Assembly (NCBI RefSeq): GCF_964188315.1
Contig: NC_135667.1
Span: forward strand, 24,862,001 to 24,926,000
Source of the DNA: Podarcis muralis
Lineage: Eukaryota
Reading direction: 5' to 3'
DNA length: 64,000 nucleotides
A program made the position numbers and the translations under genes. Below are positions 7,088 through 15,632 of this stretch, piece by piece. The notes under the pieces are model-generated. The model was not told the DNA's origin. It searched no databases and worked only from the letters and a program-made list of their open reading frames with translations. Positions within the stretch are counted from its first letter, which is position 1. The number at the start of each line of letters is the position of its first letter.

Positions 7088-8118
7088 TACTAAAATGACT
7101 GGTGCTTCTAGAAGAAAACAGGAAGATAAGTATAGGTTTAAGTCCTCTTCTGATAACTTATATTTGGCAACCAATACTGCTTTGGATGTGGCTTTTGTGG
7201 GAAATATTTTTAAAAGAAAGAAGTGAACAAAATAGTGTAATAATAAATCTTCATCTGAAGGAGAACTTAGCTTTCAGCTCCATATTGATACTGCACCATC
7301 GTCCTAAGATAAACTACTGCTAAGTAGTGCTTTTTCTTCTGGGAATTATAGGGGCAGAACTACCCAAACAGTATAGAAATTTATTCATGCATGTGACTAC
7401 AGCAGCAAGAAATTTGGCTTAGTTTGTCATGGAAACCAGGTCACTGGTTTTTCTATGTGCAGTCTATGTCAGGTTTCAGGAAAAATATAAAATGAGCACT
7501 ATTTCCCATTCTACACAATAGACTATAGTAGCATTGTCTGCATTTTGTTCTCCGAAAGCTATCCAGGTATAACTAATGTTATAAAATTAAACATCTTACT
7601 ATTTTTCTTTATAAAAAATAGATTTCCAGATGCAATTTCTTCATCACTTTAAGATGTTCTGTATTCTTCTAGCCGCTCGTGGATCTTTTTTTCTTTTTTA
7701 AAAATCTCTCCGTCCTTTTCTTCTGAGACAGTGAAAATGTTTGTATATACTTGCAGAACGATGATTTTACCATGGGGTGAAAAATTAGTACCATTATTAT
7801 ATTTATGTTCTTGGGAGCTTGGTCTCAAGAGCCCCAAACAAAATAGCAATTGTTTTCCTGGATGCTTGGACTCAAGAGTCCCACACGAAACAACCATGGT
7901 GTTTTTTTAAGACTTTGCCCCATGGGTCTAACACAAATACTGAAGATATGCAACTAAACCATCCTGTTTCAAAACAACTTACTATATATTTAAAATACTT
8001 GTGTGAGATATGACCAGCTCAGTATCCCCCCCCCCTGTATTCTTCCTACTTCTGCTATTCTTTCCTCCCTTTTATGATATCTGAACTAGATACTTTCTGT
8101 AGCATTTAAATACTTGAC

Positions 8119-8883
8119 TGTCAGGGGCTCAGGAGCAGAGGCACAGGAAAGGGAGGAAATAGAGAGCGAGGGGGAGGAATCCGAAGGAAATGTTAGCGAT
8201 GACAGCGGTCCGAGGTCTCTGAGTCTTTCCAGCGAATCGGAAGATTCACAGAAAGGGGCTCCCATGGTCAGAGCAAGGGGGGGTGCCTAGGGGGACACCC
8301 CAGGAAGATGGGGCCAGAGGGGACTCAGAGAGCAGCAGTTGGAAATCAGGACCAGCTTCCCCACCAGAGCGCAGTAGGGGGGAGGAGTCCCAGGTATCGG
8401 GACCAGGAGGCTCACCGCCAGCGGGAGGAGAGGAGTCAGGATTGGCCACGCCTCCATCGGAGAGCGAGGAAACGGTCAAGAGGAAGGTGGAAGGCTGGGC
8501 GCGCGCGCCAAGTTCAAATGTACAGGAGGGCGGCGCAGTTGGCAGCCCGGATAGGGAGCCAGGTCCCAAAGCCCGCCGAAAGGAGGGGGAGGAGTCAGGG
8601 GGGACAGCGTCAGCGTCAGAAGAGTCCAGAAAGGAGGAGACCCCGGGGGGCAGAAGGACCCAGAGGAGAAAGGAGAGACGGAAGAGGTGGAGTAAGGTTA
8701 GAGTCTTAAGCTGGTGTACAGGGGGTGGAGACTCAGATGGAGCTTCGCCGGTCTAGCCTCTAAGACGTAGAGCTGGGGCGCTGCGGCTTGGAAATGGAAA
8801 CTGTACTTCAATAAAGACTTTTGTACATTACTACCGGCTAGCGTGGGTCCTCTGTGAGCTGGGACCTGGAGCCAGCTCTGACA
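8119..8883 (+). repeat. 5' LTR (765 bp)
   Basis: TG...CA ends; AATAAA at 8810-8815; differs from the 3' LTR by 2 substitutions and one G-run indel on manual comparison. Confidence 0.97.
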
Positions 8884-8983
8884 GTAAGCTCCATCTCCCT
8901 TTTGCACCCAAAACCTCGCAACGTGAGTGGACGCAGCGAGGGGCGAAGATTGGTGTTTCGCGAGCTCACAAAAGTCAGGCAAG

Positions 8984-10060
8984 ATGACTGCCGAACAGCA
9001 AATAGCAGCCCTGCAAAATGCAGTGACACAACTCAACGCGGAGATACTCGCATCCAGGAAAAGGGAAGATGAAGCGGCTGCCGCCTACAGGGATCTCCAA
9101 ACCAGGTTGGAAGTGCTTACTAAGCAGGGGCAACCAGGACCCAAATCAGAGGGGATTGGGCTGGGGAAAAGAGGAGGCAACCTGGTCTCGCATTTCGATG
9201 GGAATTTACAGCAGTACCCTAACTTCCGAGCAGACGTGCTGTTTGCGCTGCAACTGCTGGATAAAGACTTTAGAGATGAGCAAGAGAAGGTGGGGTTTAT
9301 CTTATCCCATTTGTATGGAGATGCTAAAGCGTGGCTGCGCAATCTGTGGAGAGATAAGGATCCGGCACTCCGAAGTGCGGATGCATTCATTAAAGCGATG
9401 GATTCGTGTTTTTTATCTAATATAGACATTGATATCGCCAGAAAAGACATACATGGGTTGAAACAAGGAAGAGCCACTGTAAGGCAGTATCATTCTCGCT
9501 TTTTTGCATTGGTCAACGCGCTGGGTTGGGAGAAAGATTCTGCTCCAGTCAGAGACCTTTTTTGGGAAGGCTTGAATGCAAATGTTAAAGATGAAATTGC
9601 AAGGGGGGAGAGACCAAAGAGCACTCAGGAAGTTGTCCAGCGGGCGCTGACAATTGGGGTGCGTCTGGAAGAACGTCCATGGAGCAAAGATGAAGGGCGT
9701 TGGGGACGCACGCCAGCGAGAGCACCTCCCCTCTTTCCCAGGGATGCAGTGCGTGCGCAATCCACACCTCCGCAGGGAGGGGGAGAGGAACCGATGGAGA
9801 TTGGAGGCGCCAGGGCTCAGTCAGCAACCAGAGCCCTAACACCGGGAGCAGTCAAAGCGAAGCCTCCTAGAGGGAACAGGAAGTGCTACATCTGCGACAG
9901 TGCTCAGCACATGGCGAAAGAGTGTCCCCAGAGGCTCCACAAGCACACTGCGGCCTCCGCAACAGTAACAGAAACAACTCAGCAGAGAGAACCACAGCAG
10001 GGAAACGGCAGAGTCTGGCTGGAGGAAGAGGCACTGGGGCCCAGCCAGACAAGTCAGTGA
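8984..10060 (+). CDS. gag: Gag: coiled coil, retrotransposon capsid, CCHC zinc knuckle
   Basis: ATG at 8984 (MTAEQQIAAL); capsid-like KVGFILSHLYGDAKAW; CYICDSAQHMAKEC knuckle; uninterrupted. Confidence 0.92.
   Translation: MTAEQQIAALQNAVTQLNAEILASRKREDEAAAAYRDLQTRLEVLTKQGQPGPKSEGIGLGKRGGNLVSHFDGNLQQYPNFRADVLFALQLLDKDFRDEQEKVGFILSHLYGDAKAWLRNLWRDKDPALRSADAFIKAMDSCFLSNIDIDIARKDIHGLKQGRATVRQYHSRFFALVNALGWEKDSAPVRDLFWEGLNANVKDEIARGERPKSTQEVVQRALTIGVRLEERPWSKDEGRWGRTPARAPPLFPRDAVRAQSTPPQGGGEEPMEIGGARAQSATRALTPGAVKAKPPRGNRKCYICDSAQHMAKECPQRLHKHTAASATVTETTQQREPQQGNGRVWLEEEALGPSQTSQ
10000..10059 (+). promoter_or_regulatory. -1 programmed ribosomal frameshift signal (G GGA AAC plus H-type pseudoknot)
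   Basis: Slippery heptamer 10000-10006 in gag frame; stem 1 GTCTGGCTGG (10013-10022)/CCAGCCAGAC (10041-10050); stem 2 CACTG (10032-10036)/CAGTG (10055-10059); pol lies in the -1 frame. Confidence 0.88.
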
Positions 10061-13000
10061 AGCAGTCCCCAGAAATTTTGCAGCCCACAGACCCCCTCCC
10101 GCCCAAACCAGTGGTGCAGCTCACAGCATCGCTCCAACTACCCAATGGACTCACTATGGAAGTGCCAATTACCATTGACTCTGGTAGTAACACAGACTTT
10201 ATAGGACTGGATTTCATTCAACAGCACAACATAGCACTACTGCCAGCCACGCTGCCCCTGAAGGTTGTCACGGTGGATGGCAGGGAATTGCTGGGGGGGC
10301 AGGTGGTGCAGCAAACGCCTCCGATGGTGATGCAAATTGGGAATCACCGAGAAGTCATCAGCTTCAATGTCACCCAACTGTCGGACACGCCTGTAGTATT
10401 AGGCATGAGTTGGCTGCACAGGCACAGCCCAGCTTTGGCTTGGTACCAGCGCCAACTGACCTTCGGCTCCTCCTACTGTGCGGAACATTGCATTCTGCCT
10501 AGCCCGGAAGGGGAAGAGGATGACCCGCAGCTACAATTAGGCACGCTGCAAGCAGTGCCCCTCAAGTACGCAGCGTTTTTTGGAGTTTTTCTGCGAGAAG
10601 GAAGCAGACAAGCTACCTCCCCACAGGTCCTATGACTGCAAGATTGACCTCCTGCCGGGGGCGATGCTGCCAACTGGGAAACTGTATTCCATGTCTGAAG
10701 ACGAGCTGCAGGAACTCAGGGAGTTCATAGATCACAACTTGAAGCGCGGTTTCATCCGGGAGTCGAAGGCAGTGGGGGGGCAGTCCCGTATTCTTTGTGA
10801 AGAAAAAGGACACGCCCCAAAAAAGGCTGGTGGTGGACTATCGAATTTTGAACTCGAAAACCAAGCCCACAGCCTTTCCCATGCCCAAGATAGACGACCT
10901 GCTCGCGACGGTGAGGAAAGGACGCGTTTTCACCAAGTTGGATCTGCGAGGGGCGTACAACCTGATTCGCATACGGGAGGGCGACGAGTGGAAGACAGCC
11001 ATGTTCACGCCCCTGGGCACCTATGAATACAGAGTTATGCCCTTTGGATTAGAAAATGGCTCCCACTGTTTTCAAGCCTTCATGCATCACGTGTTAGCGG
11101 GTCTCCTCTACAAGAAGTGCGTCTGCTTCCTGGACGACATCCTGATATTTTCAGAATCGCAGGAGACTCACGAGAGAGACGACAAGGAAGTTCTGCAGAG
11201 ACTGCAGGAGCACAGACTGTACGCCAAGCTGGAGAAGTGCCAGTTCGACATGAAGGAGGTAGATTTCCTGGGCTACAAGTTGTCGGACAAGGGGCTCGCC
11301 ATGGACAGCGCCAAGGTTCACTCAGTGTTGGACTGGAAGAGCCCGCGCAATCGGAAGGAGGTCCAGCGGTTTGTCGGCTTTGCCAACTTTTACCGCAAGT
11401 TCATCAAGGGGTTCGCTATGCAGACGGCGGCCATTACCGACACGCTCAGCTCCAAGAAGAAGAAGTTCATCTGGATGGAGCAAGCGGAGCAGTCCTTTCA
11501 GAAACTCAAGCGTCTCTTCTCGTCCGAAGAGCAGCTACTGCATGTGAATCCCAGCAGACCGATGAGGGTTGAAACGGACGCCTCCGACAGGGCCGTGGGA
11601 GCAGTCCTGTTGCAGCAAGACCCGCATGGGGACTGGAGACCGTGCGCCTTCTACTCCAGGAAGCTCAGCAAGTCAGAGCAGAACTACACCATCTGGGACA
11701 GGGAGTTGCTAGCCATTCATGCAGCATTCAAGGCGTGGCGGCACTTCCTTATCGGAGCCAAACACACAGTGCAGGTCCGCACAGACCATAAGAACCTGGA
11801 GTACTGGCGCACGGCAAGGTTCCTGAACCAGAGGCACATACGATGGGCGGAGTTCTTTGCGGACTTCGACTTCAGGATAGAGTACATCCCAGGCGACAAC
11901 AACGTCATGGCGGATGCACTGTCCAGGAAGCCGCAATACCTCGAGGAGGCGGCACCAGCGGCGGCCAAGCACATTTTAGCACCGAAAGCGTGGGCGTGCG
12001 CTTCGGCAACCGTGGACCTGGATGCTGTACGTCGAGCGCTGCAGGAGGACCCCTTCGCACAAGCCAAGATGGAGGAGGTGCACAGGGGCACGGCGAAGGA
12101 CGACGAGTTCCAGATACGCGACGGATTGCTCATCCGCAAAGGGGCCCTCTACGTACTGGGAGACGACCTCCGCGCGAAAGTACTGCAGCAGTTGCATGAC
12201 GCACCCACCGCCGGGCACTTTGGCAAAGAGAAGACTGTATAATTAGTAGCCAGAGATTTTTGGTGGCCCAAGATGCGGGGGGAAGTCGCGGATTACGTCT
12301 CGAGGTGCGACACCTGCCAAAGGGCCAAGTCAGTGCACAAATCGCCGGCGGGACTGCTGGAACCGCTGCAGACACCGCTCGAACCGTGGGAGAGGGTGGC
12401 CCTGGACTTTGTCACGGATCTGCCCAGCTCGAGGGGCAAGACAGCAGTGCTAGTGGTGGTGGACATGTTCACCAAAATGGCCCACTTCATTCCGTGCGCG
12501 AAGGTGGCCACGGCGGAACAGACCGCCAAACTGTTCATAGACCACGTGTTCAGGGTTCACGGTCTACCACGGTCTATCCTGTCCGACCGGGGGCGACAGT
12601 TCATCTCGAACTTCTGGCAGAAGCTGATGGGCTTCCTGAACGTCAATATCAACCTAGCGTCGGCGAGACACCCGCAGACCAACGGACAAGCGGAGCGGGT
12701 CAACGCCATCATGCAGCAGTACCTGAGATGCTACGCAAATCAGCAGCCTGCAACATGGGTGGACTACCTGCCGCTCGCCGAGTTCGCCTACAACAACACG
12801 AAGCACGTGTCCACGGGGGTGACACCGTTCTTCGCCAACAACGGGAGGCATCCCAGAACCTTCCCGGGATTAGAGAGAGTGGGGGAGGGGGAGCCACAGG
12901 CAGCGGAAGCCTTAGCATCAGAGTTGCAGGAGGTCCACGAACAGCTTCGGAGGCAGTTAGAACTAGCAAAGCACGCATACAAACTGCAGGCTGACAGACA

Positions 13001-13900
13001 CAGAAGGGTTGGGGAAGACATACAGGTGGGAGACTGGGTTTGGTTAGCAGCCCAGGCAGTGCCGGCCAGATCGTTAGCGAAGAAGAAGCTCGGACATAAG
13101 CAGCTAGGGCCTTACCAAGTCGAGGCACAGGTCAATCCAGTGGCCTTCCGGTTGACACTTCCGGAAGGATCCAGAATGCACCCAGTTTTCCATAGATCAG
13201 TGCTCACGCCCTACAAAGCACCTCACAGATTTCAGGAGCCAGGCACGGCACCAGACCCGCTCAGGGAGATGCCCACAAGGGGGGGGGTCGCCAAGGGGGG
13301 AACCCATCAACGAGGTCACAGAGATTTTAGACTCGAGATGGGGGGAAGAGGGAGTAGAATATCTCCTCGCCAGAGAAGGTACCCCGGCCAACGCCAACAG
13401 TTGGGTGCCGGACTATGCTTTGGAGGAACCTCTGCTCAAAGACGAGTTTCATGCCCTTTTCCCACACAGACCCATGCCAGCCGAGTATTTCGACGACTGG
13501 CTTTTCACACCCACACTTTCAGCCAGCACATTCCAGGGGTTCGCCTCGGACGAGGAACCGGCACTAGACACACGTTCCCCGGAGGGATCACCCTCGGGGT
13601 CTGCCTCAGACCGCTCTTATTGGTGGGACGATCGACCAGAGGAGCAGTGGTGCAGGAAGTGGCTGGGGGGTCCTTGGCAGGCAACATCCCCAGAGGAGAA
13701 CGGGGGAGAGACGGACATGGACGTGTTGGGGGAGGACGTTGGGTTCGAGCACAGAGGCAAAGAGATGGAAGCAGAGGAGATCGACGTCGGCGAGAGCACG
13801 GAGAACGAGCCGGACTTATCCGGCTGGATGTACGCCACGGGGGACGAACTGTATCCGGCACTCACCCCCACAACGACGGAGCACCCAGTACCCACACCGG

Positions 13901-13943
13901 AAGGAGGGGAGGGGGGAAGGGGGGGCTTCGAGGGGGGGATGGA
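13901..13943 (+). other. Polypurine tract preceding the 3' LTR
   Basis: G/A-rich GGAAGGAGGGGAGGGGGGAAGGGGGGG...GAGGGGGGGATGGA directly before TGTCAG. Confidence 0.7.
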
Positions 13944-14707
13944 TGTCAGGGGCTCAGGAGCAGAGGCACAGGAAAGGGAGGAAATAGAGAGCGAGGGGGA
14001 GGAATCCGAAGGAAATGTTAGCGATGACAGCGGTCCGAGGTCTCTGAGTCTTTCCAGCGAATCGGAAGATTCACAGAAAGGGGCTCCCATGGTCAGAGCA
14101 AGGGGGGTGCCTAGGGGGACACCCCAGGAAGAAGGGGCCAGAGGGGACTCAGAGAGCAGCAGTTGGAAATCAGGACCAGCTTCCCCACCAGAGCGCAGTA
14201 GGGGGGAGGAGTCCCAGGTATCGGGACCAGGAGGCTCACCGCCAGCGGGAGGAGAGGAGTCAGGATTGGCCACGCCTCCATCGGAGAGCGAGGAAACGGT
14301 CAAGAGGAAGGTGGAAGGCTGGGCGCGCGCGCCAAGTTCAAATGTACAGGAGGGCGGCGCAGTTGGCAGCCCGGATAGGGAGCCAGGTCCCAAAGCCCGC
14401 CGAAAGGAGGGGGAGGAGTCAGGGGGGACAGCGTCAGTGTCAGAAGAGTCCAGAAAGGAGGAGACCCCGGGGGGCAGAAGGACCCAGAGGAGAAAGGAGA
14501 GACGGAAGAGGTGGAGTAAGGTTAGAGTCTTAAGCTGGTGTACAGGGGGTGGAGACTCAGATGGAGCTTCGCCGGTCTAGCCTCTAAGACGTAGAGCTGG
14601 GGCGCTGCGGCTTGGAAATGGAAACTGTACTTCAATAAAGACTTTTGTACATTACTACCGGCTAGCGTGGGTCCTCTGTGAGCTGGGACCTGGAGCCAGC
14701 TCTGACA
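13944..14707 (+). repeat. 3' LTR (764 bp)
   Basis: Copy of 8119-8883; followed by TSD TTGAC. Confidence 0.97.
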
Positions 14708-15632
14708 TTGACAGTCCGAGGTCTGAATTTGATATGATCTGGGAGTTACTTTCTGTTAAGAGTCCTACATGTCTATATGATACCATCATACCTTTTGACC
14801 GTCACCTTTGGTTGTAGTGGGATGTTTGTTCATAACCCTGTGCCATCATACATTTTTGTCTCTGTCTCTTTTGTATCTGAGACTGAACATCTTGTGTTAA
14901 GTCAGAGTTAATGTGTTCTGCATGTTGTAGTCTGGACCTGAGTTTTCTATTAAACTAGAGCTTAGCAGGGGATCTTCCTTTATTCGTTTATCTAGTTATG
15001 TGGCCCAGTCATTTTGTAATGCGAAATAAAGATCTGTTTTGAGTCTAAGGGTTTTTCCATAAATGCTTTATAATTTTTACTTTGCTTTCTGCCACCCCAC
15101 TAGTTCAGTGGCATGCAGTGAAATTTCTCATGGAGGAACAGTTAGGGCTAGAAGCACTAGCTTGCAAGGAGCATATATAACCATATGAAGAGTATTATTT
15201 TGCCCTATCTCAGTTCAGTGCATGCACTTGTAGGGACTGGCAATTTTTAAACTATCAGTTCACACATACCACCTCACAGTCAGTCTCACTGCTTATCTCA
15301 CTGTGCTAAAAGCTCTTGGTAATGCAAGAACCACCACTAAATTTCAACCAGGAAATACCATAAATTTAACCTGGAGGAAAAAAATACTTGGAGTGTTCTT
15401 GAGGCCCTTGCTTGCAATGGTGACTAAGGGTTTGTGGTTTGTCCTGCTTATATTGGTCTCCCATATAGAAAGGTGTGAATTGTTTTACATTCAGCACCTC
15501 TTTTTCTATTTGTGACTTGAACGTATTCAAAAACTTGCTGTAGTCATTCATCTGGTTCTGTGATAATACTACCACAAGCAAGGATTTAATATACATCTTA
15601 CTGCTATCAATTCCTTTAAAAATGTGATACAT

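Follow-up and report, generated by a model that had tools for sequence, protein, structure and literature searches.

Long terminal repeat (LTR) retrotransposons of the Tf1/sushi group (V-clade chromoviruses) are described as having a terminal chromodomain, TG..CA LTRs and tRNA-free self-priming (PMC6317226). The 6.6 kb LTR retrotransposon at positions 8119-14707 of a 64,000-nt stretch of a lacertid lizard genome (Podarcis muralis; the window, to which all coordinates refer) is a self-priming Ty3/gypsy chromovirus, present here as a young and broken copy; the tree that covers it is one of integrases, built with database proteins. It has the same domain order as the Tf1/sushi group, namely gag and then protease, reverse transcriptase (RT), RNase H and integrase between LTRs with a target-site duplication, together with a C-terminal chromodomain (by fold) and a self-priming primer-binding site. 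In most of the relatives retrieved, Pol ends no more than about 30 aa past the chromodomain, as the original prediction for this locus had said chromoviral integrases usually do, whereas the window family adds 375 aa, 211 of them encoded in the LTR, and has lost all three residues of the aromatic cage.

In plant CRM elements of group A the polyprotein frame likewise continues into the 3' LTR, an extension that is tied to targeting, and such a frame is also described for some beet chromoviruses (PMC3059260, PMC3605345). As described in these sources, CRM elements have no true chromodomain, carry their CR motif inside the LTR and are primed by tRNA-Met, whereas the window family has a chromodomain fold, a motif upstream of its polypurine tract (PPT) and a self-primer. 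The integrase of Ty1 has, as here, a long disordered tail with a short host-binding segment, in that case for Pol III targeting, but Ty1 is a Copia element with another host partner and a tail outside the LTR (PMC8487063, PMC10050235). Coding by U3, the unique 3' region of the LTR, had been put forward as novel. Given plant CRM, this does not hold for the extension of Pol into the 3' LTR as such, but our searches of the open-access literature brought up neither a vertebrate chromovirus whose U3 is coding nor one with an integrase motif resembling the TND-interacting motif (TIM) of host proteins, nor any retrotransposon integrase bearing a TIM.

Selection on the U3-coded part of Pol

In the window copy, the frame from 13156 to 14580 is open for 474 codons and carries Pol across the chromodomain, the PPT and the whole of U3 into the repeat region (R) of the 3' LTR, as had been predicted. 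The integrase frame of this copy shifts at a G run at about 13279-13287. The tail past the chromodomain, foreseen as ~380 aa with 212 LTR codons and a stop ~20 nt into R, measures 375 aa, with 211 whole codons (13945-14577) and one split codon within the 3' LTR and a stop codon (14578-14580) 19 nt into R. It had also been called acidic, which suits the pre-LTR part (37 D/E against 9 K/R in 164 aa) better than the U3 part, which is nearly charge-balanced (40 against 33 in 211 aa); D/E make up 20% of the tail overall.

To follow the frame through the family, 105 copies were studied. This sample comprises 25 of the 30 loci of one search and 80 loci of another (two of every three at ranks 31-150) and leans to close relatives. 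The frame was uninterrupted from integrase to the 14578 stop in 28 copies, showing that natural copies do read through to it. U3 was open up to that stop in 78 copies, interrupted within U3 in 22 and truncated in five. A frame of at least 1530 aa was found around 25 of the best 150 genomic matches to the pre-LTR tail. The T-poor composition of the LTR (11% T in U3) had been raised as a possible cause of the open frame. It proved insufficient: among 20000 dinucleotide shuffles the U3 frame was open in 89, any frame in 315, and the whole post-chromodomain stretch in five.

Seventeen of the 105 copies share their flank with another copy and were removed as segmental duplicates, leaving 88 independent copies. 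The ratio of nonsynonymous to synonymous changes among variants shared by at least six of the 88 was then compared with that among singletons. Shared variants in U3 comprised 49 nonsynonymous, 52 synonymous and no stop changes, against 111, 48 and 7 among singletons (ratio 0.38, p = 2.6e-4; without CpG changes 0.42, p = 2.7e-3), and third codon positions held 57 of the 101 shared variants. The other two sense frames in U3 gave ratios of 1.57 and 0.75, and the sequence past the tail stop gave 3.19 (p = 0.18). The corresponding ratios were 0.32 for gag, 0.20 for RT-RNase H, 0.15 for integrase and 0.06 for the chromodomain.

Comparison of subfamilies A and B, using pairs of natural copies with open frames, gave a dN/dS of 0.21-0.25 for U3, 0.25-0.34 for the pre-LTR tail, 0.08-0.14 for the chromodomain and 0.05 for RT. 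The U3 part is 64-72% identical between the subfamilies, with a dN/dS of 0.2-0.3 in each of its thirds. The dS of U3 (0.93-1.08) equalled that of RT (0.81-1.13), and the constraint therefore acts on the protein and not on promoter DNA. Only one U3 indel, of 6 nt and carried by 36 copies, was present in at least three copies; the 14 frameshifting U3 indels each occurred in one or two copies, and immediately past the stop there were five 1-nt indels carried by 4-36 copies. Where A and B are gapped against each other in U3, the gaps form groups whose summed lengths are divisible by three. Collectively, the ratio of 0.38, the dN/dS of 0.21-0.25 and the in-frame inherited indels support the view that U3 is protein-coding and extends integrase. 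Frame breaks common in young copies, a dN/dS near 1 and an early stop in the consensus had been named beforehand as signs to the contrary, and none of them appeared for U3. We are confident that U3 is under protein-level selection; we regard as shown, likewise, that Pol reads through, that both the U3 codons and the chromodomain are under selection, and that a deep clade has conserved the motif.

Frameshifts at the PPT (13896-13943), whose purine tract and G runs are translated as codons and form a site of repeated slippage, were found in 31 of 82 tree tips and are dispersed on the tree (28 steps against 25.2 when shuffled). Frame changes at 13279 cluster (15 steps against 21.9). Inherited tail-less lineages were considered and rejected, since the 13279 shifts have mixed lengths and belong to lineages whose G run is uninterrupted, which fits repeated slippage. 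Several lineages carry A interruptions at differing positions of the run at 13279-13287 and seldom slip, possibly reflecting selection for frame stability.

The chromodomain, the helix-linker-FxGF motif and the sister families

The chromodomain (13312-13458) scored below the Pfam cut-off (E = 0.0085), and its AlphaFold model matches the chromodomains of HP1, CBX and CDYL. Alignment with HP1alpha places N, R and T at the three cage positions, so that this is, as originally proposed, a chromodomain fold without the usual aromatic cage, and it thus lacks the three residues that mark a type I methyl-lysine reader. Type II chromodomains are described as having neither the first cage residue nor, in most cases, the last (PMC3059260). 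By its shared-to-private ratio of 0.06, the chromodomain is under tighter constraint than any other region compared, and this strong constraint points to a role other than methyl-lysine reading. In the sister families PF00385 is scored and the cage Trp is retained.

Behind the chromodomain lies a TIM-like motif (13480-13557) that consists of a predicted helix (13480-13503), an 8-aa Ser/Thr linker, FQGF (13531-13542) and an acidic SDEE. Host TIMs are described as a helix, an acidic or phospho-Ser/Thr linker of 8-16 aa, and FxGF, the last being essential for binding to LEDGF and HRP2; the host domain that they bind is also exploited by lentiviral integrases (PMC9987994). Their consensus is given as D/ExExFxGF (PMC8022399), and they are reported to be conserved as far as flies (10.1101/624023). 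With the TIMs, or integrase-binding-domain-binding motifs (IBMs), of MLL1, IWS1, JPO2 and JIL-1 the lizard motif shares a linker of 8-9 aa, FxGF, a disordered acidic setting, in some families the presence of two motifs and, by prediction, a short helix with putative hydrophobic anchors (PMC9987994, PMC8022399, 10.1101/624023). It differs from them in being encoded by a retrotransposon and in the linker of the window family, which is Ser/Thr-rich and not acidic, and its binding is predicted from sequence.

The pattern F-x8/9-[FLM]xGF, which was framed after the data had been inspected, was found directly behind the chromodomain in all 15 tails tested, with two copies in ten of them. Of 20000 shuffles, 23-129 contained it by chance, and it was present in none of 92 outside integrases. 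In the window family F, Q, G and F of FQGF are invariant in 88 of 88 copies. A Phe 8-9 aa upstream of FxGF is invariant as well. In families C and E the motif is doubled and both copies are conserved. A helix is predicted at the expected place with moderate confidence (pLDDT about 66). The D/ExExFxGF consensus fits families D and E and, in part, family C. One motif profile searched against the PDB retrieved only two sequences at E ≤ 10, both of them the LEDGF-binding motif of MLL1 (E 0.2 and 5.7), while a single-sequence PDB search with the motif gave chance matches only. The lizard genome contains LEDGF-domain loci; a predicted complex of the lizard LEDGF integrase-binding domain with the motif peptide scored 0.01, in a run made with no alignments and with a tool unproven on peptides. 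Judged by its sequence, the motif likely mimics host proteins that dock on the chromatin tether LEDGF.

Families C, D and E of the same genome share the layout of chromodomain, motif, PPT and an LTR-coded end that is acidic and then basic, the LTR borders of D and E being set from the PPT-TG register and not from LTR pairs. Read-through to the common stop was found in 20 of 25 copies of family C, where the stop lies 22 nt into R, in six of eight of D and in seven of eight of E. The motif carriers (A/B, C, D, E and P0008) form one starred clade of the integrase tree (100/99), with A/B on a long branch. Its named members come from Podarcis only, and element annotation elsewhere is thin. Tails range from about 140 to 375 aa among the families, and U3 measures 615 bp in the window family against 279-354 bp in family C. 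Within the coding U3 of family C, a 75-nt in-frame tandem duplication is polymorphic (L161-L167; LTR of 408 or 483 bp). Two Pol proteins of a sister lineage in Anolis carolinensis (P0016, P0018) have a tail of ~110 aa past the chromodomain that ends in an RRSAR stretch, which we take to resemble the nucleosome-binding core of HMGN.

Anatomy, transcription and placement of the element

All features of the element lie on the plus strand, between two copies of the 5-bp target-site duplication TTGAC (8114-8118 and 14708-14712). The 5' LTR (8119-8883, 765 bp, TG..CA), in which the tail frame is interrupted, and the 3' LTR (13944-14707) are two substitutions and one indel apart. The latter comprises U3 (13944-14558) and R from 14559, with AATAAA at 14634-14639. 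The start of R was set by the 11-nt self-primer, which is complementary to the primer-binding site (8886-8896); this pairing covaries across the subfamilies and the distant family C, being kept despite changes on both sides. The gag gene (8984-10060) encodes capsid and a zinc knuckle and is overlapped by pol, which is read in the -1 frame; the sequence GGGAAAC (10000-10006) is presumably the slippery site for the gag-pol shift. Pfam detected these two domains as well as protease, RT, RNase H, integrase core and SH3 (10061-13287) and the sub-threshold chromodomain. In the window copy pol is broken by frame changes at ~10580-10630, ~10780 and the G run 13279-13287, and also by a stop codon at 12240. 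The integrase of this copy shares 86-97% identity with Podarcis muralis proteins. Between the motif and the PPT lies an acidic disordered region with Trp (13558-13895), in which the frame is maintained and amino-acid constraint is weak. The tail ends in a basic cluster (14476-14514) that is a likely nuclear localisation signal (NLS), and all four families have a basic cluster near the end. In another copy (L041) the 5' and 3' LTRs differ at 160 of 721 positions and the 5' LTR is subfamily B-like, suggesting a recombinant or nested copy. The window element sits within an array of eight olfactory-receptor-like minus-strand genes (100-58000), recognised from their translations.

Single-sequence folding of the whole tail gave no confident structure (pLDDT 44), the ESM Atlas held no usable match to it, and Pfam found no family match beyond the chromodomain. 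In four RNA runs, 6-12% of each of which was read, internal depth was about 0-30 on both strands and LTR depth reached about 400, with loose read ends at both LTR borders. This suggests that LTR RNA comes mostly from solo LTRs embedded in other transcripts. In two bulk RNA runs, strong transcription within host transcripts appears to involve one or a few solo LTRs. No GT..AG joints into the tail were listed in the four runs, in which internal depth was low.

Of the independent full-length copies outside C20, 48 of 71 lie within 1.5 Mb of chromosome ends, against 14 of 103 for family C. C20, which is probably the W chromosome, holds 28 of 150 copies where 2% would be expected. LTR starts of all kinds on C1-C5 are near ends in 26 of 84 cases (2.5% expected), and the short-tailed family D likewise appears end-biased. 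Subtelomeric targeting was not adopted as a function of the tail, since LTRs of all kinds are less end-biased and family D is similar, so that retention may account for the pattern.

Possible functions of the tail

The reading that we favour, at slightly less than an even chance, is that the selected 375-aa tail of the window family's Pol is a disordered tether to host chromatin proteins, most likely those with a LEDGF/HRP2-type TND, with a predicted terminal NLS. Pol would be produced by a -1 shift from gag, the disordered tail would stay on integrase while its motif docks on a TND protein, and the basic C-terminal end would import the complex. U3 would then combine the tasks of a promoter and a coding sequence, and its length of 615 bp would follow from this double use. 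That the tail remains on integrase and binds a host protein is fairly probable. That the partner is LEDGF or HRP2, with Ser/Thr phosphorylation replacing the acidic linker in the window family, is a good deal more tentative. We hold it no more firmly that the clade copied the host LEDGF/HRP2 docking motif onto its integrase and reached the lentiviral tether by linear-motif mimicry, with the chromodomain of the window family having given up methyl-lysine reading in favour of a different conserved function and the entire U3 promoter coding as well. Lentiviral integrases contact the LEDGF-type domain through their folded core.

Several observations weigh against the tether. Frame breaks are frequent, mostly at G runs: U3 is broken in 22 of 105 copies in family A and in 14 of 25 in subfamily B, where U3 is open in 11 of 25 copies and only four of 25 read through from the chromodomain to the family stop. 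The pre-LTR tail (13477-13890) has a shared-to-private ratio of 0.97 and looks neutral at the amino-acid level within the family. The Ser/Thr-rich linker of the window family has no D/E and does not match D/ExExFxGF, the MLL1 match (E 0.2 and 5.7) is not significant, and a second motif profile retrieved no sequence from the PDB. Copies are enriched at chromosome ends and on C20, whereas LEDGF tethering predicts gene bodies, and the window copy lies between olfactory-receptor genes. Processing of Pol could also remove the tail, which is deduced from sequence.

The neutral-looking pre-LTR part would also be expected if the translated tail were mainly a spacer, its frame and composition kept to hold the terminal basic NLS, with FxGF binding non-TND proteins or the element's own. 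The variable tail length among families (about 140-375 aa) agrees with this, as does the short basic stretch in which outside relatives often end right after the chromodomain. We consider a spacer rather unlikely, given the dN/dS of 0.2-0.3 across all three thirds of U3 and the fact that families C and E carry the motif twice and conserve both copies. The original prediction had envisaged a histone-chaperone-like or targeting role. Targeting is plausible, via the helix-linker-FxGF motif upstream of the LTR. An acidic tail that acts as histone chaperone or nucleosome binder to ease integration could account for the 20% D/E and for the acidic stretches in all families, but is improbable: positive and negative charges almost cancel in the U3 part, which drifts at 64-72% identity between subfamilies, conservation is focused on aromatic motif residues and not on charge runs, and neither Pfam past the chromodomain nor the Atlas gave a usable match.

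The coding sequences of HIV nef and MMTV sag overlap U3 as separate genes, whereas in the window family the U3 coding sequence is the end of Pol. The U3-coded part has the same position and is under selection of its own, as an accessory protein released by the protease or made from spliced RNA would be. It is, however, always in frame with Pol, and the four RNA runs, at low internal depth, list no GT..AG joint into the tail; the analogy that had been drawn is therefore weak, and we give such a protein little credence. A 319-aa antisense open reading frame (13617-14576) shares third positions with the sense frame (ratio 0.40), and the L-x-W codons close to the end coincide in part with a TATA-like site ~30 nt before R. 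Selection on this frame or on promoter DNA, with the sense frame as a by-product, is nevertheless very unlikely, since an antisense stop occurs in copies L105, L179 and L180, all three with an open sense frame, U3 dS is as high as RT dS, and two distant families have their sense stop 19-22 nt into R. Least probable is a compositional accident of the T-poor LTR, which the selection tests refute; the 11% T of U3 favours it, but only 89 of 20000 shuffles kept the frame open, and the codon-position and indel patterns speak against it.

Together, these results provide, in one clade, a short candidate motif for integration-site choice in vertebrate chromoviruses. A single genome offers natural contrasts between one and two motifs, acidic and Ser/Thr linkers, a kept and a lost cage Trp, and dispersed and end-biased copies. 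If the motif binds LEDGF/HRP2, a retrotransposon would have captured the lentiviral tether independently. With or without LEDGF binding, a fully coding U3 of 615 bp clearly exemplifies how one sequence can hold both promoter and protein, and the LTRs of such families should not be taken as non-coding.
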